This document shows positions 8,473 through 35,605 of a stretch of DNA of 64,000 bases, one piece after another. The position numbers and the translations under genes were made by a program. The stretch lies in the IMG/VR virus record IMGVR_UViG_2778261574_000002, one strand, 5' to 3'. The notes under the pieces are model-generated. The model was given only the letters and a program-made list of their open reading frames with translations, was not told where the DNA came from and ran no database searches. This DNA comes from a virus. Lineage: Duplodnaviria > Heunggongvirae > Uroviricota > Caudoviricetes. The stretch's first letter is position 1; the number at the start of each line of letters is the position of its first letter.

Positions 8473-8475
8473 AGA

Positions 8476-8500
8476 AATCCCGCCAATCGGCGGGATTTTT
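8476..8500. terminator. rho-independent terminator hairpin, bidirectional position
   Basis: AAATCCCGCC-AATC-GGCGGGATTT followed by T run; sits between convergent + and - operons. Confidence 0.6.
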
Positions 8501-11107: not shown

Positions 11108-11240
11108 AATGTATATCTTTGAAACGTAGCTAACAAGTGATTTGCATTATCCTGTGTCTTCTAAAGGGATCGAGTCAGTCGGTATTGGCTGTGAATGGGT
11201 GTTTGTCCTGGAGCGTAAAAAATTCGCTTATGAGGTCTTT

Positions 11241-14886: not shown

Positions 14887-17800
14887 ATGAACAAGCTATC
14901 TATGGGGGTGTTTCGCTGTTCAAGTGTCAGCGAAATATTGAAATACATTAGGGCAATAACATCTCACCGAGCGCCGATTAAATACGGCGTGGAAAAGGTG
15001 GAAGGCAAAAGCTATGACCGACTGCGCCGGGAGGCGAATCAGAAGGCGATAGATTTGCTTAATTCGCTGGTGGACGGCGCGACACTGACAGATGAACAGC
15101 GCCAGATCCTGGCCGGGTACACTGGTGAAGGCGGCATTGGCGGGTCCGTCTCCGAATATTACACACCAAAGCCTATCGCTGAAGGTGTCTGGGAGATCAT
15201 GAAGCTCTACGGCGCGGACGTAGGTAACACTCTGGAACCATCGGCGGGAACCGGCGTTTTTAATGAGACAAAACCGGTTGGTACGGTGATGACCGCGACT
15301 GAGATCAGCAGTGTTTCCGGTCGTATAAACCAGTTGTTACACCCGGAAGACAGCGTACAGATTTCCCCGTTCGAACAGCTGGCTATAAACACGCCTAACG
15401 ATTCATTCGACCATGTTGTGGGTAACGTTCCGTTCGGCGGTCGTGATAACACACGCAACATCGATAAGCCTTACGCAGAAGAAACGGACATGGGGTCTTA
15501 CTTCATGCTCCGCATGCTGGACAAGATAAAACCTGGCGGATTCATGTGTGTGATTGTGCCGCCGTCCATTGTTTCAGGTTCAAACATGAAGCGGTTACGC
15601 CTGCGCTTATCCCGTAAAGCTGAATTTCTTGGTGCCCACCGCCTGCCTACCGGTACTTTTGACGCAAACGGGACCAGTACGGTCGTAGATGTGGTGCTGA
15701 TGCGCAAACATCCGGCAGAGATGGCTGAGAAAATCCCCCTGGTGGATGAAAGCACTCTTGAATCGGCAAATGTGCTTTGGCCAACGTTTATTTCTGGCAA
15801 GTGGTTTGAAAAGGATGGCCGCCGGTTTGTTCATGGCACCCAGGAAAAGGGCTTCCAGGGGCGTATTGAGGTTCGTGCCGACGGTCAGATTGATAACCAG
15901 GCTCTTAAAGCGAAGCTGATTCATCGTTTCGAAAGCCGTATCGACTGGTCTTTGCTCGATATGGCTGAACCGTCACCGACCGCAGACGTTGTTGGTGAAG
16001 GGGAAATGCGCCTGATTAATGGCGTATGGCAAAAATATGCTGGTGGTCGCTGGATTGAAGCTGATGCCGGGAAGGAACTTAAGATCGATGCTGCCAGTTA
16101 TGGCGCGGATAGCTGGGAGGCTCTTCAGCGTAACCTGACTACAACAGAAGGCCGTCTCGGCATGACATTTACCCAGATGGCAAATGTCCGCGATAAGTAC
16201 ACCACATCAATCAGCGACGATATGGTGCAGCTGGTGGACTGGATTAACAGCCAGCCTGAAAAATACCGTGAACGCTTGTATCGCGGGGCGATGATTGGCC
16301 GGATGTTAATTGAATATCAGGACATGAAGGCCGCCGGGCATAGTGCTGAACAAATCGAACAACAGCGCCTTTCTCTGGTGTCCCGTTTGCAGGCAGAGAT
16401 TGACCGTTTTGGTAACCCCGGTCGCGGTCCGATAGCTAAATTATCGGGAAGCGGTGCGCGCTCCTGGTTTGCTTTCCGTGGTGCAATTAAGCTGGATGGC
16501 ACTATTTCTGACGAGCTGGCAGGAAAGCTGGTTACGCATGATTCCAGCGCCAGTTATGACTCCACCAGCTATCAGGACACCCTGCGTTATCTCTATAGCG
16601 ATCTTACCCGCGATCCAATCCAGCTCGATGATTTCCGCCTTGCGTTTACCGGCGAACTGCCAGCCAGTGATGAAGAGTTGCTTAATTTATTGGCCAGCAC
16701 CCCTGGTATTGCGGTTTCACCGTATGGCGGGATTGTTCCGTTCGCCCGCGCCACCAGCGGCGACATTAACGAGATAGTGGCTCCAAAACAGGAATTCCTT
16801 GCCACACTCCCCGACGGTCCAGTAAAGAACAACGTCCTTAATCAGCTGGCAGCGATCGAAGAGAAGCGCATCAAGACGCCAGCAGAGAATATCCGCTTTA
16901 AGCTCAATAGCCGTTGGTTCGACCGCTCCGTCATTCTGGAGTTTTTGCAGGAAAACGGCTATCCGGATCTGCGCTATGTGCAGTCAGTGCAGCTGGAAGG
17001 CGACGAAATGGTTTCTGACACCTATCACGGTGGTGATGGTCTGTTCGTCGGGCACCGATACGGTGTCGTCCAGCGCAAGGATAAAGAAACAGGCGAGATC
17101 CGCTACGAGTGGGACCGTAAATCAGGTGAAAACGCGACCGGGTTCCCGGCACAGCTGGAAAAGTATCTCAATGGTGCGCGTATCGGTGGCAAAGATAGCG
17201 CGACGGCGAACGGCTACCGCGAGCAGATGGCACTGCTTGAGGACCAGTTCAATAAGTGGATCAAGACGCACGATCGCTACGATGAGCTGGTTGCCAAATA
17301 CAACGATGTTTTCAATAGCAATATCCCGTATGAACACTCTGGCGATCCGCTTGGGTTGAAGGGATTAAGCGGTAAGCGACAGCCATTTGATTACCAGAAT
17401 AGCGAGGTGCGCCGACTGTCCGAAGATGGGCGCGGCATCCTGGGCTTCGGTACCGGGCTGGGTAAAACCACGACCGCGCTGGCGCTTGAGGCGTTCAACT
17501 ATGAGAACGGTCGTTCCACCCGTACTGCGTATGTAGTGCCTAAATCAGTGCTGGAAAACTGGTATTACGAAGCAAAAGAGTTTCTGAGTGAAGAGGCATT
17601 CAGTAACTACCTGTTCGTCGGTCTTGATGTGCTGATGGATGGCGATCAGATTCGCCAGGTGCCGGTGCTCGATGAGAACGGTAAACCTGTCGTTGGTGCA
17701 GATGGCACTCCCGTTATGCGCGATGCCCTTAAGCTGGCAGATGAAGCCACTATCACGGCGCGGATGAACGCGATCCCGCACTCAAACTACCGTGCAGTCG

Positions 17801-20800
17801 TGTTTACCAAAGAACAATACGCCCGCATTCCGCTACGTGATGACACCGTAGATGAGCATGCACAAGACATGCTTTATGACTTCGTTGCCGCCGGGCGCGT
17901 AGCCAGCGCAATGGATTCCGACTCCCATCGTAAAGAGGCGGCGCGTCGCCGGGTATTGTCGGAGTATTCAGATACCGGTACCGAAAAAGCAGAGAAATAT
18001 CCGTACTTTGAGGATATGGGCTTCGATAGTGTGATCGCCGACGAAGGCCACAACTACCGCAATAGCTATAAAAATGGTCGCGAAGCGTCACAACTGGCCT
18101 ATCTGCCCACCAGCGCGGTGGCGCAATCGGCGCGGGATATGGCAATCAAAAACGCGTACCTGATGAAAAAGAATGGCGGGCGCGGGCCGGTTCTCCTGAC
18201 TGCAACGCCAGTCGTTAACACCCCGATCGATGCATACAACATGCTTTCTCATGTTCTGCCGAAGGAATACTGGCAGAAGATGGGGATCTACGGTCCTGAT
18301 GACTTCGTTAAATTCTTCGGCAAGACCAGGCTGGAAACGGTACAGAAAATCAGCGGTGAAGTTGAAGAAAAAATGGCGCTGGTGGGCTTTGAAAACCTTG
18401 ATGCGCTGCGCGGCATATTCCATCGCTGGACAACGCTTAAAACGGCGGAAGACGTTAAGGATACCGTGGAGATCCCGGAGCTGGACGAACACCAGCAGGA
18501 TGCACCACTTACTGAAGAACAACTGGCGGCGTATGAAGAATTGCGTCAGCAGGCGGAAGCGGCGGCCAAAGCCAACAATGGCGTAACGACCTCGGTCGAT
18601 GAAGACGGAGTGATTGAGCACGAGAAAGCCCGTCCGATCTTCTCAATAATCAGGGATATGGACCGCGTATGTACTGACATGGACCTGTACTATCGCCGGA
18701 TCACCTATCGTTTCCTGCCGGAGTACGCCGATGCGGTGCAGCAGCTGGCGGACAGTTTGCCCAAACAAGCCACCAGCGAAGACGACGACAGTGATGATTC
18801 AATCACGCAGCAATCGCAATACTCCCTGATAGATAAGGGCGAGTTTATTCAGTTGCAGGTTCCGGAAGCGTTCGAGCAGGAAGTGAATAAGCGCTTGGCC
18901 AAGTTTGGCATTGACGAACAGACTGTAACTCACCCCGTTACGCCCAAATACGTGAAGCTGATCGCCACGCTGAAGGAGTTTTTCCCGGAAGGTAAGCAAA
19001 TCATCTTCACGGACGAAAAAACGCAGCACCAGAAGCTCAAGCGCATTATCTGCAATGCTCTTAACCTTGAACCTTCAAAGGTGGGGATCCTGAATGCTCA
19101 GACGGTTGCCGAGGCAGGTAAAACCGGTAAGAAACTGAAAGCGGTTAAACCGCCGAAAGAGTTACCGGATGAACCAACAGATGCACAGATAGCGAAATAC
19201 AACGAGCAAATGGCTCTGTATGACGCCTATATCGCGCAGCAGAATGAAATGTCGTTGGGCGGTCTGGAAAAGATTGCAGCCGACTTCCAGGAGGGCCGGA
19301 CTCCGATCATCATCTGCAACAAAAAGGCAGAGGTGGGTATCAACCTGCATCGAGGAACGACTGACATCCATCATCTGACGTTGCCATGGACACCAGCCAG
19401 TATCGCACAGCGTAACGGTCGCGGTGCTCGAGTTGGCTCCAACCGTGCAAGCGTTCGCGTTCACTACTACTGCGGCAAGGGGTCTTTCGATGAATACCGA
19501 TTGAAGACGCTGAAGCGTAAAGCAGGCTGGATCTCCGATATCCTCCGTTCAGATAAGTCGGAAATGGAGAACGCCGACGCCAATGACATGATCGAAATGC
19601 AGATGTATACCGCGAAGGATGACGGCGAACGTCTGGCAATGATGCAGGTTCAAATGGATAAGGCGAAAGCTGCGAAACGCGCTCGCCAGAAAGAACAGGC
19701 TACTATCGACCTTCAGAATTACATCAAGGCGCAGCACGCAGCTGGCGAGGATGTGGAGGTACTTACCGCTGAATTAAAGCGAAGCAAAGCGGAACTTGAA
19801 AAGACCACCGCCGAGGTAGCTAAATTCAAACAGGCGGTAATGGCCAAAGCAGCTGATAACGCAGACTGGAAAGCCCGCTGGGGTAGCGTCCATCACACAG
19901 ACCGTACGTTGTTAGCACAGTATCGCGCGTCGTTGAAAAGCGCCATTCAGCGCAAGGCTAATATCTCTCAGGCCATCTCCCGCTATGAGAAATTATTGAA
20001 CCGTACTCAGAAGGCCGCGACGGATATCAAACGCCTGCGCCCGCTGGTGGAGGATGCAATAAATAAAGGCATTCTGGATGTTGATCCTGATCTGGTTAAC
20101 CATGCGAATGAGTTCCTTGTTATCGGCGATCGCTCATGGCGTGTAGGCCAATACTACGATTGTGCCGGTGATATCGTTCGCATTAAGTCGTTGGACTTCG
20201 ACAGCCAGCGCGCAGACGTGGAGATCATCTTTACCTTAAGAGGCACCAAATCGGGTAACTGGGATGTGAAGACGCTGGATAAACAGGTGGATGTAACTCC
20301 CGATGAAGATGCTGTTATGCAGAAAATCAGTGGTGGCGTCTCCATCGCCGGGATTAACGACATCATTTCCTGTGACGATTTCTACCGTTTCCAGCAGCGC
20401 GGCATGATCAAAATCACTGACTCATACGGCGTTCAGACTACAGAGTCAGGCTATAGCATCGATTTTGTTGGTACCTATACGGACCCACTGAAGCATGCGG
20501 TTTACCCGGATCGCCGTGACGGCGCGCTGAAGTCGTCAATTGCAAAATGGGTGCTTGGTATGATGTCGGAAGGGAATAACCGCCAGATCCGTTCGGCAGA
20601 AACATTCCTGGTTGAACTGTTTGGCTCCAATTATGGCGATGTAATCGCGTCATACGGAGATACGCTATCCCCTGAAGCAATTCAGGAGAAAATAGCGGAT
20701 GCGATCGCCAGAATGCCGGAAAAAACAAGCCAGGGGGCTACTCGTAACGGGGATTCTGAACTTGAAGTCACCAATGCCATTTTCGGTACCAATGAGTTCC

Positions 20801-21654
20801 GGGCGTCAGATTATGAGATCACCACAGCACAGTTTGGCACCATTGGCATTTACAGCAATAAAGACGAGATCAAACAGGCAATGGACGCAGCAAGCGCGCG
20901 CATTGCAGCAGAACGGAAAGTCAATCTGAATCATGCAGTCGCCGCGCTGACTCAATCGTGGGTAACAGCAATCAGGGAGGCCGCCACCACAGGAAAAATC
21001 ACACCGGCAATTGCGGATGTCGTAAACGACGGCTCTAAATTTATGGATGCCTATAAAATGGATGCGGTGCAGTTGCCATCAGCCTATGGGCAACTCAGCT
21101 ATCGCATGACCTACAACCTGGTATCAATGTTTACCGACCTTGCCATCCTTGGGCTGGTGGACCTTAACGAGGTTACGCCGGAATTGCTCAGCATGCGCAA
21201 GAATCATGTGGAGATATTGCACAGAATTAACACGGTACTTGCCGGGCGCACCGATGAAGAGAAACAGGCAGACGCTGATCGGATAAACCTGGCCCTTGGC
21301 AACATCACGGAGGAAGAAATTGCTGCCAGAAACGAGAAACAAGAAGAGTTATCATCAATACAGGGTGATGCCACCAGCATAGCTCAGTCTCTTGGTCTGA
21401 ATTATCGCGTATCCACCGCCGACCTGAAGATGATGTACGCACCAAAATTCGCCGCTGGCGAGGTATTTGGGCTTCAGGAAGCCTCCGGCATGAAAGGGGT
21501 TCTTTTCCGTGCGAAAGACGCAATCAAGGCGAAATTCGGCGCTCGCTGGTTGCCAGCGAAGGCGAAGAACAGCGACTTCCCAGGTAACTGGTGGATTATC
21601 GAGACAAAACACAACGTGGCGGACGTTCTGGCCGTCATCCAACAATACGCATAA
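14887..21654 (+). CDS. darB: DarB, giant anti-restriction methyltransferase/helicase
   Basis: 2255 aa as in P1 DarB; N-terminal MTase-like NVPFGG motif, central helicase motifs (GTGLGKTT-like, ADEGHNYRN, LLTATPV). Confidence 0.9.
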   Translation: MNKLSMGVFRCSSVSEILKYIRAITSHRAPIKYGVEKVEGKSYDRLRREANQKAIDLLNSLVDGATLTDEQRQILAGYTGEGGIGGSVSEYYTPKPIAEGVWEIMKLYGADVGNTLEPSAGTGVFNETKPVGTVMTATEISSVSGRINQLLHPEDSVQISPFEQLAINTPNDSFDHVVGNVPFGGRDNTRNIDKPYAEETDMGSYFMLRMLDKIKPGGFMCVIVPPSIVSGSNMKRLRLRLSRKAEFLGAHRLPTGTFDANGTSTVVDVVLMRKHPAEMAEKIPLVDESTLESANVLWPTFISGKWFEKDGRRFVHGTQEKGFQGRIEVRADGQIDNQALKAKLIHRFESRIDWSLLDMAEPSPTADVVGEGEMRLINGVWQKYAGGRWIEADAGKELKIDAASYGADSWEALQRNLTTTEGRLGMTFTQMANVRDKYTTSISDDMVQLVDWINSQPEKYRERLYRGAMIGRMLIEYQDMKAAGHSAEQIEQQRLSLVSRLQAEIDRFGNPGRGPIAKLSGSGARSWFAFRGAIKLDGTISDELAGKLVTHDSSASYDSTSYQDTLRYLYSDLTRDPIQLDDFRLAFTGELPASDEELLNLLASTPGIAVSPYGGIVPFARATSGDINEIVAPKQEFLATLPDGPVKNNVLNQLAAIEEKRIKTPAENIRFKLNSRWFDRSVILEFLQENGYPDLRYVQSVQLEGDEMVSDTYHGGDGLFVGHRYGVVQRKDKETGEIRYEWDRKSGENATGFPAQLEKYLNGARIGGKDSATANGYREQMALLEDQFNKWIKTHDRYDELVAKYNDVFNSNIPYEHSGDPLGLKGLSGKRQPFDYQNSEVRRLSEDGRGILGFGTGLGKTTTALALEAFNYENGRSTRTAYVVPKSVLENWYYEAKEFLSEEAFSNYLFVGLDVLMDGDQIRQVPVLDENGKPVVGADGTPVMRDALKLADEATITARMNAIPHSNYRAVVFTKEQYARIPLRDDTVDEHAQDMLYDFVAAGRVASAMDSDSHRKEAARRRVLSEYSDTGTEKAEKYPYFEDMGFDSVIADEGHNYRNSYKNGREASQLAYLPTSAVAQSARDMAIKNAYLMKKNGGRGPVLLTATPVVNTPIDAYNMLSHVLPKEYWQKMGIYGPDDFVKFFGKTRLETVQKISGEVEEKMALVGFENLDALRGIFHRWTTLKTAEDVKDTVEIPELDEHQQDAPLTEEQLAAYEELRQQAEAAAKANNGVTTSVDEDGVIEHEKARPIFSIIRDMDRVCTDMDLYYRRITYRFLPEYADAVQQLADSLPKQATSEDDDSDDSITQQSQYSLIDKGEFIQLQVPEAFEQEVNKRLAKFGIDEQTVTHPVTPKYVKLIATLKEFFPEGKQIIFTDEKTQHQKLKRIICNALNLEPSKVGILNAQTVAEAGKTGKKLKAVKPPKELPDEPTDAQIAKYNEQMALYDAYIAQQNEMSLGGLEKIAADFQEGRTPIIICNKKAEVGINLHRGTTDIHHLTLPWTPASIAQRNGRGARVGSNRASVRVHYYCGKGSFDEYRLKTLKRKAGWISDILRSDKSEMENADANDMIEMQMYTAKDDGERLAMMQVQMDKAKAAKRARQKEQATIDLQNYIKAQHAAGEDVEVLTAELKRSKAELEKTTAEVAKFKQAVMAKAADNADWKARWGSVHHTDRTLLAQYRASLKSAIQRKANISQAISRYEKLLNRTQKAATDIKRLRPLVEDAINKGILDVDPDLVNHANEFLVIGDRSWRVGQYYDCAGDIVRIKSLDFDSQRADVEIIFTLRGTKSGNWDVKTLDKQVDVTPDEDAVMQKISGGVSIAGINDIISCDDFYRFQQRGMIKITDSYGVQTTESGYSIDFVGTYTDPLKHAVYPDRRDGALKSSIAKWVLGMMSEGNNRQIRSAETFLVELFGSNYGDVIASYGDTLSPEAIQEKIADAIARMPEKTSQGATRNGDSELEVTNAIFGTNEFRASDYEITTAQFGTIGIYSNKDEIKQAMDAASARIAAERKVNLNHAVAALTQSWVTAIREAATTGKITPAIADVVNDGSKFMDAYKMDAVQLPSAYGQLSYRMTYNLVSMFTDLAILGLVDLNEVTPELLSMRKNHVEILHRINTVLAGRTDEEKQADADRINLALGNITEEEIAARNEKQEELSSIQGDATSIAQSLGLNYRVSTADLKMMYAPKFAAGEVFGLQEASGMKGVLFRAKDAIKAKFGARWLPAKAKNSDFPGNWWIIETKHNVADVLAVIQQYA

Positions 21655-21687
21655 CAGGAGCGCCCGGTTCGCCGGGCGTCGCATAAT

Positions 21688-22128
21688 ATGGCCACACTAT
21701 CTGATACAATAAAACCGAATAAAACATATCTTGAGGCGGTACTCCGTACAGCGTTGTTAGGAAAGACAGAAGACGAATACGTTGATTTCTTCCTGTCAGG
21801 GCTACGCGGGCGATTACTGAAAAATCCCCGCCTGTACCGCAGCTATGGTCCATACTGGCCGGAAATTAAAAAATTATTACTGGAGCGCGGTTATGGTAAT
21901 TTCGGTCGTCTCGTTGACCGTGACGTTCGCAAAATTTACCGTTATGACCGCCCGGCGCTAACACTCATAGCCGCGACGCTCTACAGCCAGGAGCGTTTTG
22001 ATAATGGTCAGATATACTCAGCCTGGCATTTACTGCCAGTGCCTGAAGAAGTTGACGACCAGGACTATGAGTTTGAGTCTTACGATTTGGAAGTTGAAGC
22101 CTTGGCACAGGCTGGAGAGAAAACTTGA
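21688..22128 (+). CDS. ulx: Ulx-position protein
   Basis: 146-aa ORF directly downstream of darB and 4-nt overlapped with the next gene, as ulx-lxc in P1. Confidence 0.55.
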   Translation: MATLSDTIKPNKTYLEAVLRTALLGKTEDEYVDFFLSGLRGRLLKNPRLYRSYGPYWPEIKKLLLERGYGNFGRLVDRDVRKIYRYDRPALTLIAATLYSQERFDNGQIYSAWHLLPVPEEVDDQDYEFESYDLEVEALAQAGEKT

Positions 22129-22373
22129 AAAAGCGATACTACACAGTAAAGCATGGGACGCTACGAGCATTACAAGAGTTTGCTGACAAGCATAACGTTG
22201 AGGTGCGCAGGGAAGGGGGAAGTAAAGCTCTGCGCATGTACCGTCCGGACGGGAAATGGCGTACAGTCGTCGATTTCAAAACAAACAGTGTTCCCCAGGG
22301 CGTCCGCGACCGGGCATTCGAAGAATGGGAGCAGATCATCATAGATAATGCATTGCTTCTCAATGCTGATTGA
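22125..22373 (+). CDS. lxc: Lxc/Bof, C1 co-repressor modulator
   Basis: 82-aa basic protein; size and position match P1 Bof/Lxc. Confidence 0.6.
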   Translation: MKKRYYTVKHGTLRALQEFADKHNVEVRREGGSKALRMYRPDGKWRTVVDFKTNSVPQGVRDRAFEEWEQIIIDNALLLNAD

Positions 22374-22382
22374 GTTTTGTTG

Positions 22383-22406
22383 GCCCGGTTTGCACCGGGC
22401 GTTTCA
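22383..22406 (+). terminator. terminator-like hairpin after lxc
   Basis: GCCCGGT-TTGC-ACCGGGC then GTTTCAC; weak T tract. Confidence 0.4.
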
Positions 22407-22455
22407 CAAACAATCAACTGGTTTGTAGTTCCTGCGGCGAGATGAATTATTAATA

Positions 22456-23064
22456 TTATCGTGGTGCCGATGATGCGATAGCCTGTATGATGTTATCAAT
22501 ATCGTTATCGTTCAGCATGAATATAGGTACACCATTAGAGTTTGCATTTTTTTCAGTGCTCATCAAACAAAGCCCCTCATACATGCCGCGAGTTTTTTTG
22601 AAATTGGCGACTGATGGAGTGGTGTAATTTCCTTTAAAGTGCATTCCGGCTGATTCATAAAAAGGAACCAAATCAGACTGGCAAATCAAAGCGACCTCAT
22701 TTGGAAATGCAAGTATTTCTGCCAGTATATTACTTCCAAGTCCATTACCACGATATTGCTCATATACATATATTTTATGACAGTACAACGGAAAATTTCC
22801 CGATGGATGTCCGAAGATTAAGGCGTATCCGAACAAGTTTTCTTCATTAGTAAAGCCCATAATGCGCAAATGACCGGCTCGGTAACACTCTTCAAAAACG
22901 TTAATTATGTAGCTTCTCGCTGCTTTCAGCTCCTCTTCTGTCGGGAACATCATCAACCCCATAAGCGATGGAGTATAGGCCAGATCCTGAAGAATCCCAT
23001 TAGCTTCATTTTCGAAAATTAGCGGTAAGTGCGGTACAATTTCATTTGCCGAGGTATTAGACAT
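22456..23064 (-). CDS. GNAT-family N-acetyltransferase (cargo gene)
   Basis: YVYEQYRGNGLGSNILAEIL contains the GNAT R-x-x-G-x-G acetyl-CoA motif; gene and flanks visibly AT-rich. Confidence 0.8.
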   Translation of the reverse strand: MSNTSANEIVPHLPLIFENEANGILQDLAYTPSLMGLMMFPTEEELKAARSYIINVFEECYRAGHLRIMGFTNEENLFGYALIFGHPSGNFPLYCHKIYVYEQYRGNGLGSNILAEILAFPNEVALICQSDLVPFYESAGMHFKGNYTTPSVANFKKTRGMYEGLCLMSTEKNANSNGVPIFMLNDNDIDNIIQAIASSAPR

Positions 23065-23262
23065 AGTATGGTGAGTCCTTTGTTTTCAAAGGACTCATGT
23101 TATCAGTGATAATCGTTTGTTGTAATAGTGTTGATAAAATAATTTTCTATTATGTAAGCAAGCTCATTTTTATGACGGGTAATGCAAAAAAAATAGAATC
23201 AAAAAACTAAAAAATAATAATTCATGGGGTTTTACACCATCAAAAGTCCCCACTATAAATTA

Positions 23263-23904
23263 TTAGAAATAATTATGCTTGCCTGTTAATACCCCTTTCG
23301 GCACTTTTTTTTGTTCCAGTGTCTGGGTACCCAGAATTATGTTAATAAGTGGACTTAGTAACGATGGTTCCTGGCGGGCTTCAACTTCTCCAGCCATTGC
23401 CCTGATGTAGTCGGCGCTGGCAACGTTGTTGTATTCCGTCGCAAAGCAACATAGTAACGTCAGAACATGCTCTGTCGTTATTTCGCTCCAGTTGATGTTG
23501 AAAAATTCATCGCCTTTTTTATCGTGTTCGGAATCGAAGATGCTTTGGTGGAGGATGTATTTGCCGGATTCCTTGCGCGGTAACTTGATCGCTTTCTGGC
23601 GTTCCAGCTCCTTGTAAATCTGCATTGCTTCAATCAGTACCGGCCTGCCGTTCATGAAGGGATCGCGCAACCTTACACGCTGGCCAACTCGACCAGTAAT
23701 AAAGCTGTTTTCCTCTTCCACCAGCACGATAAAACCTTTTTCCTCTTTCTCACGCAATTCGCGCAGCAACTGGAGTTCCATATCGCGGCGGCGTTCAGGG
23801 TAGCTGGTCCGCTCAGCCATTATCAGCTCGTTGTTGATCCATGCAGCAGTCATTGACGCCGGTTTGCCGACGCTCATCGAAACAACGCATATTTTCTTAT
23901 CCAT
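23263..23904 (-). CDS. hypothetical protein at the mat position
   Basis: 213 aa from ATG 23904 with AGGGG RBS; between ref and the GNAT island; no motif recognised. Confidence 0.5.
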   Translation of the reverse strand: MDKKICVVSMSVGKPASMTAAWINNELIMAERTSYPERRRDMELQLLRELREKEEKGFIVLVEEENSFITGRVGQRVRLRDPFMNGRPVLIEAMQIYKELERQKAIKLPRKESGKYILHQSIFDSEHDKKGDEFFNINWSEITTEHVLTLLCCFATEYNNVASADYIRAMAGEVEARQEPSLLSPLINIILGTQTLEQKKVPKGVLTGKHNYF

Positions 23905-24092
23905 AGCGCCCCTACAAAAAAGAAAAGCCACCAGCGGCGGCTTAGCAATACAACAAAAGGTAGCGCCCGGTACTCAGACTGTGCCGTCCATGGAATATTT
24001 GAAAAGGGATCCATCCGTACCGGGCATGTGATGATTCTGACTGAAGTCACTTGTCAGTTGTCAATTATTTCAGATTAAAAATAATATATTTA

Positions 24093-24653
24093 TTAGTGCA
24101 TAATGTTTGCCATCTCATAGGCGTCAGCCAGCAACTCCATCTCTGACTTGTTCAGCAAGGTGAATTCTTTCTTGCCTCCAACCACACCATCGGCATGAAC
24201 AGGGACCAGCCAGGGATATTTTTCTCTTACTTCAGCCGGTGCTGCATGCTGGTGGTGCCATCTACAAAGGGGCAATTGCTTTTTGTGACAACCCGGCGCG
24301 GTACGACCGGAGATATGGTGCAAAGATACCTCTTCAGATATTACTCCATGCATGTAGCAGGCAATGCAGGGGAGAGCGCCAAGAGCACTGGCGATGCTCC
24401 GTTCCTCCGCTGTCGGTGTTCGCCCCTTCAAGCCACGAGATTTTATCTTTACCGCACTTTTCCGCGTTTTGCTGGCTGGTGGGCGCTCTTTCTGTTTAGC
24501 GATACGGCGGTCGATAGAATCCCGCATTTTCTGATATTGCGATTCTCGCCAGGCGGGGTCAGCCAACTTTTCCCGTTGCCGAGCGATCGCTCGTTCTCTG
24601 GCTGCCTTCTGCCACTCGCGGCGCTGTTCAAGTTTTTGTTCGATTGTTTTCAT
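24093..24653 (-). CDS. ref: Ref, HNH-type RecA-dependent nuclease
   Basis: starts MKTIEQKLEQRREW, 186 aa; Cys/His cluster CIACYMHG..HHISGR..CHKKQLPLCRWHH typical of HNH. Confidence 0.85.
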   Translation of the reverse strand: MKTIEQKLEQRREWQKAARERAIARQREKLADPAWRESQYQKMRDSIDRRIAKQKERPPASKTRKSAVKIKSRGLKGRTPTAEERSIASALGALPCIACYMHGVISEEVSLHHISGRTAPGCHKKQLPLCRWHHQHAAPAEVREKYPWLVPVHADGVVGGKKEFTLLNKSEMELLADAYEMANIMH

Positions 24654-24654
24654 A

Positions 24655-24684
24655 TGGCAAAAAAAAGGCGGCCTAATGGCCGCC
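24655..24684 (-). terminator. intrinsic terminator-like hairpin immediately upstream of ref
   Basis: on minus strand GGCGGCC-ATTA-GGCCGCC followed by T8, ending 5 nt before the ref ATG. Confidence 0.5.
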
Positions 24685-24751
24685 AATGATGTCAAGGAGT
24701 GAAGTAATGGCAACGTCTTCGTAGTTGACAAAAACTGCGGCTCAATTATAG

Positions 24752-24768
24752 CAATCAATTAGAGCAAT
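24752..24768 (-). promoter_or_regulatory. C1 operator-like site upstream of ref
   Basis: CAATCAATTAGAGCAAT shares the TTAGAGCAAT core. Confidence 0.45.
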
Positions 24769-24898
24769 GGTAGATATTTTGTTTATCGCGAATCACATTT
24801 TTTCACTTCAGTACCTGTGTGCTATACTCCTTCTTGATTGATTGGATGCGGAATACAAACCCGCTCTTTTGTGCAGCCTGGCTCCTTGCCAGGCTTTT

Positions 24899-25210
24899 TT
24901 ATTTCATCATGGAAGCTGTTAACGCTTTGGATCTTGCTGAACTGATTGAAAGGGCATTGTTTACCTTACCCAGGAGTTCGCCAAATTCCGCCATCACTCT
25001 AGTAAGCCCGCGCCGCGCTTCCTCCTCCGTTGCATTCATCACAAAATGTTCAGCGCTCCGCATGCTTTTAACGGGGAACGCAACAGATATCGAGTCGATA
25101 TCAGGCATCCTATCGCTCAATTTTACGGTGACAATGACAGATGGTGACTGAATTTGAGAGCTTACAGACAGCACCACATATTTTCCGTCTATTTTGAAAT
25201 CCTTCCGCAT
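24899..25210 (-). CDS. hypothetical protein between cre and ref, possibly cra
   Basis: 103-aa ORF starting about 17 bp downstream of an operator-like site; protein-like composition. Confidence 0.35.
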   Translation of the reverse strand: MRKDFKIDGKYVVLSVSSQIQSPSVIVTVKLSDRMPDIDSISVAFPVKSMRSAEHFVMNATEEEARRGLTRVMAEFGELLGKVNNALSISSARSKALTASMMK

Positions 25211-25260: not shown

Positions 25261-26292
25261 CTAATCGCCATCTTCCAGCAGGCGTACCATTGCCCCCGTT
25301 TCACTATCCAGGTTACGGATATAGTTCATGACAATATTCACGTTGGTCCAGCCACCAGCTTGCATGATCTCCGGTATTGAAACTCCGGCGCGGGCCATAT
25401 CTCGCGCGGCTCCGACACGGGCACTGTGTCCAGACCAGGCCAGGTATCTCTGACCAGAGTCATCCTTAGCGCCGTAAATCAATCGATGAGTTGCTTCAAA
25501 AATCCCTTCCAGGGCGCGAGTTGATAGCTGGCTGGTGGCAGATGGCGCGGCAACACCATTTTTTCTGACACGGCAAAACAAGTAGTTATTCGGATCATCA
25601 GCCACACCAGAGACAGAAATCCATCGCTCGACCAGTTTAGTTACCCCCAGGCTAAGTGCCTTCTCTACACCTGCGGTGCTAACCAGCGTTTTCGTTCTGC
25701 CAATATGGATTAACATTCTCCCACCGTCAGTACGTGAGATATCTTTAACCCTGATCCTGGCAATTTCGGCTATACGTAACAGGGTGTTATAAGCAATCCC
25801 CAGAAATGCCAGATTACGTATATCCTGGCAGCGATCGCTATTTTCCATGAGTGAACGAACCTGGTCGAAATCAGTGCGTTCGAACGCCAGTGCCTGTTTT
25901 GCACGTTCACCGGCATCAACGTTTTCTTTTCGGATCCGTCGCATGACCAGTGAAACAGCATTACTGTCACTTGGTCGTGGCAGCCCGGACCGACGATGAA
26001 GCATGTTTAGCTGGCCCAAATGTTGCTGGATAGTTTTTACTGCCAGACCGCGCGCCTGAAGATATAGAAGATAATCGCGAACATCTTCAGGTTCTGCGGG
26101 AAACCATTTCCGGTTATTCAACTTGCACCATGCCGCCCACGACCGGCAAACGGACAGAAGCATTTTCCAGGTATGCTCAGAAAACGCCTGGCGATCCCTG
26201 AACATGTCCATCAGATTCTTGCGAACCTCATCACTCGTTGCATCGACCGGTAATGCAGGCAAATTTTGGTGTACGGTCAGTAAATTGGACAT
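25261..26292 (-). CDS. cre: Cre site-specific tyrosine recombinase
   Basis: 343 aa, sequence MSNLLTVHQNLPALPVDATSDEVRKNLMDMFRDRQAF... ending RLLEDGD matches P1 Cre as I recall it; loxP about 420 bp upstream. Confidence 0.98.
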   Translation of the reverse strand: MSNLLTVHQNLPALPVDATSDEVRKNLMDMFRDRQAFSEHTWKMLLSVCRSWAAWCKLNNRKWFPAEPEDVRDYLLYLQARGLAVKTIQQHLGQLNMLHRRSGLPRPSDSNAVSLVMRRIRKENVDAGERAKQALAFERTDFDQVRSLMENSDRCQDIRNLAFLGIAYNTLLRIAEIARIRVKDISRTDGGRMLIHIGRTKTLVSTAGVEKALSLGVTKLVERWISVSGVADDPNNYLFCRVRKNGVAAPSATSQLSTRALEGIFEATHRLIYGAKDDSGQRYLAWSGHSARVGAARDMARAGVSIPEIMQAGGWTNVNIVMNYIRNLDSETGAMVRLLEDGD

Positions 26293-26299
26293 TTAACAC

Positions 26300-26521
26300 T
26301 CAGATAATGGTTTTAAGTAAAGTGTACAGGATCGGCTCTGCCTTTACCTGTTTATGGTTCTCGTCATAGAAACGCCAGCGACCGCGCGTGCGTTCTATTT
26401 TCTCTTCACCGCGAGATAATGACAGTTGGTAACTATCACGCTCAAACCCTTTTGCCCGCCAGTAACCACGGTTTTTCTCAAGCTCAAGATGAGTGGACAC
26501 TTTAGCAGCTGAATATCCCAT
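26300..26521 (-). CDS. candidate small basic protein between loxP and cre
   Basis: 73-codon ORF with ATG and GAGGTG RBS; stop sits 8 nt before the cre ATG; lies in the known cre promoter region, so uncertain. Confidence 0.3.
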   Translation of the reverse strand: MGYSAAKVSTHLELEKNRGYWRAKGFERDSYQLSLSRGEEKIERTRGRWRFYDENHKQVKAEPILYTLLKTII

Positions 26522-26710
26522 TTTTCACCTCTGATTGATTGGTGGTGCTAAGTGCGCTACGCGAAATCTGTAGGACTAACACCGCCAACATTTCGCAGAT
26601 TTTACGTAGCGCAACCTTGATCAAATGATCAAGTGATCACTATTTGACCTGATAAGGTATTGAACTGTATGGATTTACAGGTAAATTGATCATGTTCAAT
26701 AACCCCTAAG

Positions 26711-26744
26711 ATAACTTCGTATAATGTATGCTATACGAAGTTAT
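26711..26744. other. loxP recombination site
   Basis: exact 34 bp ATAACTTCGTATA-ATGTATGC-TATACGAAGTTAT (reverse complement of the usual written form). Confidence 0.97.
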
Positions 26745-26787
26745 TAGGTCCGAAGAGGAGTTTACGTCCAGCTGCGCATAAAAATCA

Positions 26788-26804
26788 AGAATTATTAGAG
26801 CAAT
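26788..26804 (-). promoter_or_regulatory. C1 operator (Op99 cluster)
   Basis: AGAATTATTAGAGCAAT, 2 mismatches; between loxP and coi. Confidence 0.55.
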
Positions 26805-26870
26805 AAATTTTGAGAGAAAAATCCCACTCCACCAGCCAAAAACTGGATTGTTTTTCATAGTTGTTTGACA

Positions 26871-26887
26871 ATTGCTCTAATAAATTA
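26871..26887 (+). promoter_or_regulatory. C1 operator (Op99 cluster)
   Basis: ATTGCTCTAATAAATTA, 1 mismatch to consensus. Confidence 0.65.
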
Positions 26888-27125
26888 TAGTTTTGCCGCC
26901 GTTTCGTAATACGACTTTGGATTCACTATTTAATGTGTCTTCAGCGTTGTAGAGCGGCTCAGAAGGAAATGAGCAAACAGGGAAACCTTATACAACGGCA
27001 TTACAGCTATGCATTGCTCATCTTACACACAGCGCAATGTTGTTAGATTACCCCAGCATGGATCATGGGTGAAACAGTAGGTCAGAGCTTCAGGCTCTGT
27101 GTTGTCAATACAGTGAGGCATAATT

Positions 27126-27445: not shown

Positions 27446-28297
27446 ATGATAAATTATGTCTACGGCGAACAACTGTACCAGGAGTTCGTCAGCTTCAGGG
27501 ATCTCTTTCTAAAAAAAGCTGTTGCACGCGCCCAACACGTTGATGCCGCCAGCGACGGTCGTCCTGTTCGCCCGGTTGTCGTTCTGCCGTTCAAAGAAAC
27601 GGACAGCATTCAGGCTGAAATTGATAAATGGACTTTAATGGCGCGGGAACTGGAACAGTACCCAGACCTCAATATCCCAAAGACTATTTTATATCCAGTG
27701 CCTAACATCCTTCGCGGTGTGCGTAAGGTTACAACTTATCAGACAGAAGCTGTGAACAGCGTCAACATGACCGCTGGCCGCATTATTCATCTGATTGATA
27801 AGGACATTCGCATCCAGAAAAGCTCGGGGATCAATGAGCACAGTGCGAAATACATAGAGAACCTGGAAGCAACAAAAGAGCTAATGAAGCAGTACCCGGA
27901 GGATGAAAAATTCCGTATGCGTGTACACGGCTTTAGCGAAACAATGCTGCGCGTCCATTACATTTCCAGTAGCCCTAACTACAATGATGGTAAATCAGTT
28001 AGTTACCATGTGCCGCTGTGTGGTGTGTTTATCTGCGATGAAACTCTCCGTGATGGAATCATCATCAACGGTGAATTCGAGAAAGCAAAATTTAGCCTTT
28101 ATGACTCTATAGAACCGATCATCTGCGACCGCTGGCCGCAGGCAAAAATATATCGCCTGGCAGATATTGAAAATGTAAAAAAACAAATTGCCATCACTCG
28201 CGAAGAGAAAAAGGTCAAATCAGCCGCATCAGTTACGCGCAGCCGTAAAACTAAGAAGGGGCAGCCAGTAAACGACAACCCCGAAAGCGCGCAATAG
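27446..28297 (+). CDS. c1: C1 immunity repressor
   Basis: 283 aa starting MINYVYGEQLYQEFVSFRDLFLKK, as P1 C1; strong RBS. Confidence 0.95.
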   Translation: MINYVYGEQLYQEFVSFRDLFLKKAVARAQHVDAASDGRPVRPVVVLPFKETDSIQAEIDKWTLMARELEQYPDLNIPKTILYPVPNILRGVRKVTTYQTEAVNSVNMTAGRIIHLIDKDIRIQKSSGINEHSAKYIENLEATKELMKQYPEDEKFRMRVHGFSETMLRVHYISSSPNYNDGKSVSYHVPLCGVFICDETLRDGIIINGEFEKAKFSLYDSIEPIICDRWPQAKIYRLADIENVKKQIAITREEKKVKSAASVTRSRKTKKGQPVNDNPESAQ

Positions 28298-28321
28298 TTT
28301 CTATCCGGCATGGTCAATGAG

Positions 28322-34971: not shown

Positions 34972-35605
34972 GGTCCACCTCATGCTTTTCAGCCACCAGC
35001 GGCAATAAAGCCCTGGCCATCTTATGAACCAATAGTGCATCAATAATGCCAAGCGTATGCCCCGGCTTAATGTTTAATGCCGCCTCAAGGCGACACCTTT
35101 CCAGGCCACTTTTCTCGGCTTGTTTATGATGATCTGGTGTAATAACGTCGCCCAAAACACGGCTTATTCTTTCTCGTAATTGCTGGGTGCCAGCACACTT
35201 GATCGCTGTATCGTGGAGACGGTTAACCAGTTCGCGATAAACATGCGGCTTAATTCGGATACGTTCACCGGTGACGCCCTTTCCTGGTGCTGGCACCGAA
35301 CTATCCGGAATATCCGGATAGTTGCCAGCCTCGTAAGCTACCCGCAGCCAGTGCATGAATGTTTCAGTGGACACACAACCACAGTCCACATCGATTTTCC
35401 CGCGTTGCTGTTCCAGCCAATGCTCAAAATTCAATCTACACGTATTACTTTCATGTTGCTCTTTTTGTCTCAAGGCCAGCATCTGCTGGGCTATTTCCAA
35501 TACTTCATCTGCCGTATATCCAGCACCGTGACCATACATTTCGATACGGGAAATAATCTCTGATATGCGCTCTTCAGTGATTCTGGTCATTTCTTTTTGC
35601 GCCAT
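34955..35605 (-). CDS. hypothetical protein
   Basis: 216-aa ORF in operon with flanking genes. Confidence 0.5.
   Translation of the reverse strand: MAQKEMTRITEERISEIISRIEMYGHGAGYTADEVLEIAQQMLALRQKEQHESNTCRLNFEHWLEQQRGKIDVDCGCVSTETFMHWLRVAYEAGNYPDIPDSSVPAPGKGVTGERIRIKPHVYRELVNRLHDTAIKCAGTQQLRERISRVLGDVITPDHHKQAEKSGLERCRLEAALNIKPGHTLGIIDALLVHKMARALLPLVAEKHEVDHANES

Follow-up and report, generated by a model that had tools for sequence, protein, structure and literature searches.

The window, the whole stretch of 64,000 nucleotides analyzed here, is a P1-like phage-plasmid. It carries a cargo gene for a GNAT-family N-acetyltransferase whose only Shine-Dalgarno (SD) sequence lies in a perfect hairpin, and this hairpin most likely silences only RNA that reads in from the upstream late gene mat. 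We put a probability of about 40% on this reading, in which the mask depends on transcript origin: mRNA from the gene's own promoter would be translatable, while mat read-through RNA would be silenced. RNA started upstream, mainly the Lpa-dependent mat RNA of lytic growth or else RNA from AT-rich sites in the leader, would carry both arms and fold into a stem of -16 kcal/mol, burying the sole SD and leaving the GNAT gene untranslated. RNA from a putative extended -10 element, TGaTAACAT, would start near position 23090 within the 5' arm, where no stem could form, and would be open to translation. The cargo gene would then owe its expression, in a lysogen for instance, to its own promoter and be insulated from outside transcription. 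We infer that the masking arrangement has been selected rather than being incidental, although a neutral palindrome-perfecting mutation is a serious rival.

A cargo gene with a buried Shine-Dalgarno sequence

The GNAT gene occupies 22456..23064 on the minus strand and encodes 202 amino acids (Pfam Acetyltransf_10/_1). Its ATG (23064..23062) is the most upstream in-frame start and is kept in homologues. The protein falls in phrog_10454, of unknown function, and is identical to PDB 9s30 chain A; a literature search found no publication on either PDB 9s30 or the protein. The structure is a generic GNAT fold, and with no PADLOC match and no NCBIfam match above cutoff, a toxin-type GNAT as the reason for tight control is unsupported.

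The gene forms a cassette with approximate ends at 22410..23255, located in the res-mod variable slot between lxc and mat. The junctions were set by comparison with the near-empty site in RCS47, and the GC content of the cassette is 37.7%, versus 48.6% for the window. The res-mod slot is hypervariable in P1-like elements (PMC9603915). It is also a known landing site for resistance genes in these elements, and in pHYEC7-mcr1, ISApl1-mcr-1 is inserted within the same GNAT gene. A separate, GC-rich hairpin on the plus strand (GCCCGGTTTGCACCGGGC, 22383..22400) lies in RCS47 directly between the lxc and mat stops, such that mat runs directly into it; here, the cassette separates this hairpin from mat.

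The hairpin of interest is a perfect 11-bp stem with a 4-nt loop on the minus strand at 23097..23072, consisting of a 5' arm TGAGTCCTTTG (23097..23087), a loop AAAA (23086..23083), and a 3' arm CAAAGGACTCA (23082..23072). On the plus strand, it reads GAGTCCTTTG (23073-23082), TTTT (23083-23086), and CAAAGGACTC (23087-23096), with the flanking pair T23072/A23097 extending the perfect stem from 10 to 11 bp. The sequence-only reading had described a perfect 10-bp hairpin at 23066-23097, placed 8 nt upstream of the GNAT start codon. The hairpin is indeed present, one pair longer than described; the span given for it takes in the spacer, the hairpin proper being 23072-23097, and the gap to the start codon is 8 nt for the 10-bp stem and 7 nt for the 11-bp stem.

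The SD sequence, AAGGA at 23080..23076 on the minus strand, lies wholly within the 3' arm, 11 nt ahead of the ATG and separated from it by the spacer CTCACCATACT. We find no second SD-like element, bearing out the earlier claim that this is the only one. Among GNAT homologues with 56-100% protein identity, the SD is conserved as AAGGA, AAGGG, or CAGGA. Its spacing from the ATG is 11 nt here versus 8 nt in relatives, which is already suboptimal.

Folding of the leader RNA, proposed as a check by the sequence-only reading, gives the hairpin an energy of -16.1 kcal/mol (z = -4.9), with none of 200 shuffles equally stable, and the stem dominates the centroid structure of the complete 228-nt leader. 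Perfect hairpins of at least 10 bp are expected 0.4 times per shuffled window, and the pattern of this one occurs once in the 64-kb window against an expectation of zero. Because no shuffle is as stable, so few stems of this length are expected, and the pattern is unique, the hairpin is more than chance. In temperature-dependent folding, pairing within the stem stays above 99% as far as 50 C, and the stem is computed to melt only at 60-80 C or above.

The cost of exposing the SD depends sharply on where the RNA begins. For RNAs with both arms, starting at 23262, 23207, 23120, or 23097, unpairing costs 13.7-14.6 kcal/mol, falling to 5.8 kcal/mol for a start at 23092, 3.6 at 23091, 2.6 at 23090, and about 2.3 for later starts. 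The probability that the SD is free is about 1e-10 in RNAs with the complete stem. When 59 annotated gene starts were compared in a plasmid with an identical GNAT module (median, 4.8 kcal/mol; 90th percentile, 8.4 kcal/mol), the GNAT SD zone, at 14.8 kcal/mol, ranked at the top. By de Smit and van Duin's account of 1990, translation reportedly drops about tenfold for each 1.4 kcal/mol of ribosome-binding site hairpin stability. Judging from these computed energies, any RNA with both arms should be essentially untranslatable.

Predicted transcription into and from within the cassette

The mat (maturation control) gene, named from annotated relatives, lies directly upstream of the GNAT gene and co-oriented with it, at 23263..23904 on the minus strand. 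A terminator scan found no minus-strand terminator-like sites between 23262 and 23065, and the fold of the mat-GNAT leader is unremarkable (z = -0.14). Ahead of mat, at 24034..24052 on the minus strand, is a site resembling a P1 late promoter, with a 9-bp inverted repeat AAGTGACTT (24052..24044), 4 nt, and CAGAAT (24039..24034). The 9-bp inverted-repeat Lpa site is found in P1 late promoters (PMC10695390). The box upstream of mat was spotted by eye, and the regions upstream of lyz (11135) and prt (14872) share its ACAAGTGACTT-N4-TAnnnT architecture. As enrichment of the bare Lpa-like 9-mer is not significant (18 occurrences against 12.5 expected), assignment as a late promoter rests on this shared extended architecture; deriving the box from perfect 4-1-4 repeats beside near-consensus -10s found nothing. 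On these features, mat transcripts may read through into the GNAT gene, but Rho termination could occur in the 198-nt untranslated leader.

For transcription from within the cassette, the best candidate is the putative extended -10 element TGaTAACAT at 23105..23097 on the minus strand (TG, 23105-23104; hexamer, 23102..23097), whose final T is also the base with which the stem begins. The motif of this putative promoter of the cassette is TGATAACAT. We aligned nine non-redundant leaders from unrelated genomic contexts, drawn from P1-like plasmids, IncFII plasmids, and Serratia and Enterobacter chromosomes, and the only invariant run is TCnnTGnTAAnAT, the TGnTAAnAT block. The distance from this block to the ATG is 27-34 nt in all nine. 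T-12, A-11, and T-7 are retained even in the hexamer variants TAATAT and TACCAT, the latter being that of the L034 leader (TGcTACCAT). The GNAT leader thus has the TG, the TAnnnT hexamer, and the sensible distance from the gene that mark an extended -10 promoter. That the gene travels as a self-contained cassette, with a long gap ahead of it in unrelated contexts, likewise implies a promoter of its own.

Further upstream, the signals are weaker. The -35 candidate ATTACA (23121..23126, minus strand) matches at 4 of 6 positions with an 18-nt spacer and is not conserved; extended -10 promoters function without a good -35. At about -56..-46, the A/T tract AAAATTATTTT (23136..23146, minus strand) is UP-element-like, resembling what we take to be the UP consensus, AAAWWTWTTTT, which is weak evidence in a leader of only 28% GC. 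Over the two hexamers, the putative promoter scores 8/12, and a simple promoter scan missed it.

The conservation of the block suggests that TGaTAACAT may be the active GNAT promoter, with a predicted transcription start at about 23090 (range, 23092-23086), within the 5' arm. From such a start, the gene's own mRNA would never form the hairpin. The sequence-only reading had named a start mapped downstream of the hairpin as evidence against silencing, and the predicted start comes near to that situation.

Distribution of the hairpin and competing explanations

The hairpin is restricted to one young lineage of the cassette, type A, comprising about 20 plasmids that are at least 96% identical, in E. 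coli, E. fergusonii, and Salmonella from several continents. The GNAT open reading frame is intact in these approximately 20 plasmids, and we found no origin for the type-A leader outside them. All other lineages of the GNAT gene lack the hairpin, although AAGGA and the ATG are conserved family-wide. Since it is absent from every other lineage compared, the hairpin is not part of the conserved regulation of the gene. Type-B cassettes occupy the same slot downstream of mat with no strong hairpin, their SD cost being 4.9 kcal/mol, a background value; as they manage without it, insulation is not required. Apparent pairings of the SD in type B (CTCCTTC with GAAGGAG) and L024 were considered as convergent design and rejected, their costs of 4.9 and 8.9 kcal/mol being within or near background.

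The most serious alternative to masking by transcript origin, although we consider it rather unlikely, is that the palindrome is unselected: a recent templated (strand-switch) mutation would have perfected an ancestral quasi-palindrome, and any effects on RNA would be incidental. Quasi-palindromes are hotspots for templated mutations, and the leaders are suggestive of such a history. Most lineages have a core of four to five pairs (G..CUUU with AAGG..C), with the outer pairs confined to type A. The stem-perfecting changes cluster in a single patch of the 5' arm, CAGGC to GAGTCC, which is the exact complement of GGACTC in the 3' arm, and the Providencia homologue already has GGACTC. In a 97% sublineage, the sole nearby substitution, C to T at 23070, extends the palindrome to 12 bp. 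The stem has a single young origin, and no other lineage has formed one independently.

Tests for constraint on the stem give no signal. The approximately 10 variable leader sites avoid the stem, as expected by chance with a P of about 0.3, so purifying selection is not evident. Across homologous leaders, covariation in the stem is absent, falling below shuffles. The share of leader-alignment cells that pair, 54.6%, is equal to the mean of 500 shuffles, 304 of which score as high, and lies near the 49.5-51.5% seen in controls slid by +1 to +3; with pair counts matching controls, a conserved RNA structure in the leader is ruled out. Against a wholly neutral account, both arms differ from outgroups, such that a single one-arm conversion is not a full explanation, and the stem persists across the host species and continents listed above. 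Moreover, a neutral origin accounts for origin only, as the stem must still block translation of RNA with both arms. If the neutral account is true, the case becomes one of palindrome perfection by templated mutation.

A stronger, adaptive version of masking by transcript origin would restrict GNAT translation to lysogeny. The gene would be silent on the abundant Lpa-driven late RNA and, while the element is a plasmid-prophage, be translated from RNA of its own sigma70 promoter. We regard this life-cycle gate as unlikely; if true, it implies an acetyltransferase that is useful to the lysogen and harmful or wasteful in lytic development.

The sequence-only reading had proposed that the gene may be translationally silenced until the hairpin is opened. 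Its first half stands, in that a strong stem buries a conserved SD and opening would cost about 14 kcal/mol. No opening mechanism is visible, and the own mRNA is predicted, from the conserved TGnTAAnAT, to start inside the 5' arm. For the GNAT mRNA to contain the full hairpin, transcription would have to begin upstream of 23097, and the gene would be nearly untranslated, either constitutively or until a trans factor or event opens the stem. Two promoter-like sites on the minus strand of type A could supply such a start. The first (TTATCA, 23137..23132; 17 nt; GATTAT, 23114..23109; overall, 23109..23137) matches at 8 of 12 positions and would start RNA at about 23102 with the whole hairpin; this type-A-only candidate is the main uncertainty for the own-promoter model. 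The second, TTGATG-18-TATTAT (23214..23243; 9/12), lies just past the mat stop, and its RNA would also include the full hairpin, but the region is AT-rich, giving low specificity. On RNA from either site, the vanishingly small chance of a free SD would add to the suboptimal 11-nt spacing. However, neither site is conserved in other lineages, whereas TGnTAAnAT is.

Nor do we find anything that would open the stem. An RNA thermometer is ruled out, as the mean probability that AAGGA is unpaired is 0.0005 at 30 C, 0.0012 at 42 C, and 0.0022 at 50 C. A search of 22300-24200 gave no Rfam match at E values up to 1, and with no covarying structure or alternative conserved pairing, a known cis-regulatory RNA family (riboswitch, leader, or attenuator) is likewise rejected. 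A 13-codon leader open reading frame (minus strand, 23098..23057), encoding MSPLKTKDSPYYV before its stop, crosses the hairpin and ends 5 nt into the GNAT frame. We judge unmasking by its translation incidental: it has no SD, its AUG is within the stem at the base, and the ATG is replaced by ATC in all other lineages. A cost of about 14 kcal/mol on every transcript would leave an effectively dead gene, yet the frame is intact throughout type A. We therefore hold a full-hairpin mRNA to be improbable.

The other suggestion of the sequence-only reading, a site for a dimeric regulator, fares poorly. A dimeric repressor bound to the 26-bp palindrome would occlude the GNAT promoter, as the perfect dyad, at about -7 to +19, overlaps both the predicted start and the predicted core promoter. 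Besides it, a smaller dyad, TTATCACTGATAA (23112..23100), overlaps both the TG and the -10. The proposed search for the same palindrome elsewhere found no second copy in the 64-kb window or in the remaining 45 kb of an identical plasmid, and none in the chromosomes of 5,426 E. coli genomes, while its half-sites recur only at chance level. The cassette contains no regulator gene. The dyad is unlike C1 operators, which occur before ref and cra only, and unlike the Lpa box, of which a likeness stands before mat and not before GNAT, and other cassette lineages lack it. An operator here is thus very unlikely.

Least credible of all is a transcript-end element, serving as a terminator or 3'-end stabilizer for mat RNA (minus strand) or convergent transcripts (plus strand): although the stem is stable and downstream of mat, the window's other perfect hairpins are terminator-like, and the plus-strand stem sits inside a larger fold (z = -3.2), the terminator scan did not call it on either strand, the tails (ACCAUACU / ACCATACT on the minus strand, UGUUAUCA / TGTTATCA on the plus strand) contain no U-tract, the stem lies 165 nt beyond the mat stop and right on the GNAT ribosome-binding site, and lxc plus-strand transcripts reach the GC-rich hairpin at 22383-22400 first.

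Masking by transcript origin in known systems

If masking by transcript origin is true, phage-plasmid cargo ("moron") genes can be insulated from the carrier's strong late transcription without a terminator, and the position of the transcription start relative to the stem would alone determine in which phase, lysogeny or lytic growth, a gene is decoded. There is also a practical consequence, in that native-leader constructs of this GNAT (PDB 9s30) driven by an upstream promoter would probably yield no protein. The class of mechanism is already known, and the value of the case is as an example, not a new concept. One thing that such masking calls for, a stable stem over the SD, is found here, with 11 bp, -16.1 kcal/mol, and the highest cost of the 59 starts.

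Close parallels are the insertion sequences IS10 (Tn10) and IS50, in which fold-back inhibition of read-through transcripts was reportedly described by Davis, Simons and Kleckner in 1985 and by Schulz and Reznikoff in 1991. As proposed here, a mobile unit has its own weak promoter, outside transcripts have an additional 5' segment that masks the ribosome-binding site by pairing with it, and own-promoter transcripts begin within or beyond the masking segment and are translatable. For IS10 and IS50, the mechanism has been demonstrated, with the 5' arm located in the insertion sequence end, whereas the GNAT case is predicted only. The GNAT hairpin further differs in belonging to a cargo cassette and not to a transposase gene, in being perfect and short range, and in occurring in one cassette lineage only.

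A second parallel comes from phage T4, where the genes e (lysozyme), soc, 49, and I-TevI are said, by McPheeters et al. in 1986 and related work, to have ribosome-binding site hairpins in early read-through RNA. Here too, a phage genome has one open reading frame on two transcript classes, an SD stem on the longer RNA only, and a proximal promoter that initiates within the 5' arm, as we predict for GNAT. The timing runs the other way: in T4, it is the late transcript that can be translated, whereas for GNAT, the late mat RNA would stay silent and translation would come from the sigma70-type transcript.

Other systems share the local structure. The MS2 coat-gene hairpin series (de Smit and van Duin 1990) likewise has an SD-containing local hairpin, for which an exponential loss of expression is expected. 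That series, however, embodies a general physical rule and not a regulatory system, and -16 kcal/mol is far beyond its range of partial expression. RNA thermometers and riboswitch platforms also pair the SD in a leader hairpin, but the GNAT stem is perfect, with no bulges or mismatches and no melting below 60-80 C, and its leader has no aptamer, Rfam match, conservation, or covariation.

A stable hairpin over the GNAT Shine-Dalgarno sequence

On the coding (minus) strand, positions 23097..23072 read 5'-TGAGTCCTTTG-AAAA-CAAAGGACTCA-3', a perfect 11-bp stem. The sequence-only reading had reported 10 bp, one pair fewer, and had placed the sole Shine-Dalgarno (SD)-like AAGGA within the 3' arm, where it indeed lies in its entirety (23080..23076); the first in-frame GNAT start is the ATG at 23064..23062 (-). 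Folding gives the hairpin -16.1 kcal/mol (z, -4.9), with 0 of 200 shuffles equally stable, and the centroid fold of the whole leader still contains it. Related leaders keep both the start codon and AAGGA (in some, AAGGG or CAGGA), which confirms the SD assignment; the SD-ATG spacing is 8 nt in relatives versus 11 nt in the window.

Masking was computed as the free-energy cost of forcing AAGGA single-stranded. In RNAs with both arms, modeled from the mat stop, from a distal promoter-like site, from a point 56 nt upstream, and from the stem base, opening costs 13.7 to 14.6 kcal/mol (P(free), ~1e-10). The background set was pATCC10729_02, a plasmid whose GNAT module is 100% identical to that of the window; opening the -16..-6 zone costs a median of 4.8 kcal/mol across its 59 annotated gene starts, with the 90th percentile at 8.4, and GNAT tops the set at 14.8 kcal/mol. 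The SD is computed to stay >99% paired up to 50 C, and the stem does not melt. Given this cost and the established relation between ribosome-binding site (RBS) hairpin stability and expression, reportedly described by de Smit and van Duin in 1990, RNA carrying both arms is predicted to be effectively untranslatable.

The second-highest score in the background set belongs to the ulx-like gene 3' of darB (+), in whose leader (21656-21690) AGGAG at 21656-21660 sits 27 nt 5' of the AUG at 21688, and the interval holds a GC-rich hairpin, GCGCCCGG-UUCG-CCGGGCGU (21660-21679). The structured part there is the spacer, not the SD, and the predicted fold would restore normal SD spacing, a candidate "split RBS" resembling that of T4 gene 38. 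Among the 59 starts, the c1 repressor gene (pATCC10729_02 26211-27062, -; window ~27448-28299) ranks third for SD-zone occlusion (11.2 kcal/mol), which could be a sign of translational control of C1, whether already known or not.

The 64-kb window holds eight distinct perfect hairpins of 10 bp or more, versus ~0.4 in shuffled windows. One is loxP, and others, of 10 to 12 bp, lie at 8475-8498, 35299-35323, 42981-43009, 44539-44566 (between two C1-operator-like sites), 53039-53067, and 60988-61011. Several have GC-rich stems between A- and T-runs (e.g., AAGAAAAGCCCGGCGATCGGGCTTTTCTT) and by eye resemble bidirectional terminators. A 13-codon ORF (23098..23057, -) crosses the GNAT stem and terminates just within GNAT; it lacks an SD, has a base-paired AUG, and owes that ATG to type A alone, the cassette lineage with the strong hairpin, and it is regarded as incidental.

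The GNAT cassette and its slot

The window is a P1-like phage-plasmid, with Cre at 25261..26292 (-), loxP at 26711-26744, and 15 C1-operator-like sites versus 0.3 expected. The minus-strand order is cre, cra, ref (Pfam RecA_dep_nuc), mat (23263..23904), and GNAT (22456..23064), while DarB (2255 aa; 14887..21654, +) is followed by ulx- and lxc-like genes. In P1, type III res-mod genes occupy the mat-lxc interval. In a phage collection, the flanks match at 97 to 98% identity, and 890 bp around GNAT match nothing. Comparison of window 21600-24900 places a RelA/SpoT-family gene in the slot of other relatives, including phages SJ46 and vB_EcoM-673R5, and shows it nearly empty in RCS47, where just a GC-rich hairpin separates lxc and mat. 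That hairpin is retained here (22383-22400), and the GNAT cassette (~22410-23255; GC, 37.7% versus 48.6% for the window) lies between it and the mat stop, the match to ordinary P1-like plasmids restarting 5 to 9 nt past that codon. The slot, a hypervariable region known in P1-like phage-plasmids (PMC9603915), is a cargo hotspot for functionally diverse single-gene inserts.

In the P1-like plasmid pHYEC7-mcr1 (NZ_KX518745.1, 1-4300), an ISApl1-mcr-1-pap2-ISApl1 composite transposon sits within the GNAT gene (window ~22779); the leader and hairpin are intact, and because the ORF is truncated, the gene is dispensable for plasmid maintenance. The 202-aa product (Pfam Acetyltransf_10/_1) is identical to PDB 9s30 chain A, a tagged construct for which a literature search found no associated paper. 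It belongs to phrog_10454, a family with no assigned function, and has no match in PADLOC and none above cutoff in NCBIfam. The AlphaFold model (pLDDT, 88) predicts an N-terminal three-helix extension of ~60 residues on a generic GNAT core, and the structure matches generic GNATs (spermidine/spermine and arylalkylamine acetyltransferases, ElaA) at a TM of 0.4 to 0.5. A toxin-type GNAT needing tight control was rejected, as nothing in the searches or predicted fold suggests it. The family is small (23 protein clusters) and spread across Enterobacterales plasmids and chromosomes.

A lineage-specific stem and a conserved putative extended -10 element

Leaders were taken from type B, a second type of P1-like plasmid (~85% DNA identity), from Serratia, Providencia, Klebsiella (on an IncFII plasmid), Enterobacter, and further contigs with 50 to 76% protein identity, and from metagenomes. 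Among the leaders compared, the 11-bp stem is confined to type A, which turned up in ~20 PLSDB plasmids, in 12 of the 5,426 complete E. coli genomes, and in a small number of contigs from IMG/VR and metagenomes; all these leaders are at least 96% identical. Elsewhere, opening the SD costs an ordinary 0.7 to 5 kcal/mol, with one lineage at 8.9. In the nine-leader alignment, 54.6% of cells are paired, no different from the mean of the shuffles (304 of 500 scored as high) and near the 49.5 to 51.5% of controls slid by +1 to +3; covariation is lower than in shuffles, and an Rfam search matched no family. The hairpin is not a conserved regulatory element. Its widespread part is only a 4-5-pair core (CUUU with AAGG), an ancestral quasi-palindrome.

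The sole invariant run in the nine non-redundant leaders is T-C-n-n-T-G-n-T-A-A-n-A-T, in which TGnTAAnAT has the sequence of an extended -10 sigma70 element and is a putative promoter. TG is fixed, as are T-12, A-11, and T-7, the positions of most weight for sigma70, and the hexamer variants (TAACAT, TAATAT, TACCAT) differ at positions that matter less. All enterobacterial lineages, with protein identities as low as 56%, have the element 27 to 34 nt 5' of the ATG. All leaders have a weak -35, a usual trait of extended -10 promoters. The loci around the gene are unrelated in other respects, and it always sits alone behind a long gap, as expected if the cassette brings its own promoter. In the window, the putative element is TGATAACAT (23105..23097, -), and the stem begins on its final T. 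The predicted start is 23090 (canonical, 7 nt past the hexamer), and positions 23092-23086 are all within the 5' arm or loop; the SD cost would be 5.8 kcal/mol from 23092, 3.6 from 23091, 2.6 from 23090, and ~2.3 beyond, which is background level.

A second, smaller perfect dyad, TTATCA-C-TGATAA (23100-23112, -), overlaps the TG and -10; its type B equivalent is GCTGAT-AAC-ATCAGC, part is conserved as CTGnT-AAC-AnCAG, and the invariant block, besides being a -10, could thus also be dyad-like. On the plus strand, the promoter-like TTCAAA-17-GATAAT (9/12; 23085-23113), with its -35 in the hairpin loop and 3' arm, would if active yield RNA antisense to the leader and mat; the region is AT rich, and the site may be noise. 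Type B leaders (L001/L002/L017; ~-45..-10 from ATG) carry 5' of the -10 a perfect 7-nt anti-SD, CTCCTTC, that could pair with GAAGGAG, and in a further non-type-A leader (L024) CTCCCTG is able to pair with CAGGGAG. These partners would be missing from own-promoter RNA, and the pairings cost 4.9 and 8.9 kcal/mol, within or near background, and may have no meaning.

Predicted transcription from mat and a proposed role for the stem

The mat gene adjoins the cassette directly upstream in the same orientation, and beyond it ref has a C1 operator. A late-promoter-like site lies 5' of mat (24052..24034, -; ACAAGTGACTT, 4 nt, CAGAAT), and the same architecture is found 5' of lyz (11135) and prt (14872). 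Because this matches the definition of P1 late promoters, in which a 9-bp inverted-repeat Lpa site replaces the -35 (PMC10695390), mat is probably a late gene. The pattern (A/G)AC-AAGTGACTT-N4-TAnnnT recurs at 11135 (+), 14872 (-), 24052 (-), 31053 (-), 31642 (+), and 49946 (+), presumably P1 late (Lpa-dependent) promoters, including those of lyz, prt, and mat. The bare 9-mer shows no significant enrichment (18 found, 12.5 expected), so that the assignment depends on position and on the longer pattern. The mat-GNAT leader fold is unremarkable (z, -0.14). A minus-strand scan from the mat stop to the GNAT ATG found no terminator-like site, and the cassette has displaced the GC-rich hairpin found after mat in RCS47. 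Late transcription should therefore run into GNAT with both stem arms.

We propose, with a probability of about 40%, that the stem is a translational mask set by where the transcript starts. Read-through RNA from mat would form the stem and be silent for GNAT, own-promoter RNA would be translatable, and expression would be on in lysogeny and off late; promoter activity, start position, read-through, and selection are what we infer here. Such insulation is not required, because type B cassettes sit in the same slot behind mat without the strong stem.

The stem may instead owe its existence to templated perfection of a quasi-palindrome, a neutral origin that we hold to be somewhat unlikely and still a serious rival, because the pattern of changes fits. 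The stem is young and of single origin; its 5'-arm patch changed from CAGGC to GAGTCC, the exact complement of a 3'-arm GGACTC already present in the Providencia homologue, and the lone nearby substitution, in a 97% sublineage, lengthened it to 12 bp. Seven type A leader variants have ~10 variable sites, 0 of them in the stem, -10, or SD, but chance alone would give this with a P of ~0.3. A neutral origin would, however, leave unchanged the stem's necessary effect on RNAs containing it.

The sequence-only reading suggested that the gene may be silenced until the hairpin is opened. That interpretation is partly supported: the strong stem over the SD stands, but no opening mechanism is visible and the stem is not conserved. 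Were an upstream promoter real, GNAT would be nearly silent on its RNA; type A has two promoter-like sites upstream, TTATCA-17-GATTAT (start ~23102) and TTGATG-18-TATTAT, whose RNAs would include the stem, but neither is conserved, and an ORF silenced on every transcript would hardly be expected intact across ~20 plasmids. The same reading's alternative, a dimeric regulator site, fared worse: the palindrome is single copy in the window and the other 45 kb of the identical plasmid, 0 further copies were found in any E. coli chromosome searched, half-sites are at chance level, and an operator seems improbable. Least probable is a terminator or stabilizer, an intrinsic terminator being rejected as neither strand has a U-tract and the terminator scan made no call.

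Our analysis suggests that the hairpin is most likely a new putative example of known translational insulation, or else a young palindrome of neutral origin that happens to have this effect; either way, it amounts to modest, ordinary phage-plasmid cargo architecture. IS10 and IS50 have been shown experimentally to be protected from outside promoters by the same logic, the long RNA being silent and the own-promoter RNA translatable, as is predicted here. In T4 e, soc, 49, and I-TevI, an RBS hairpin forms on the long early RNA and the proximal promoter starts inside the hairpin, whereas the time order for GNAT would be reversed relative to T4.
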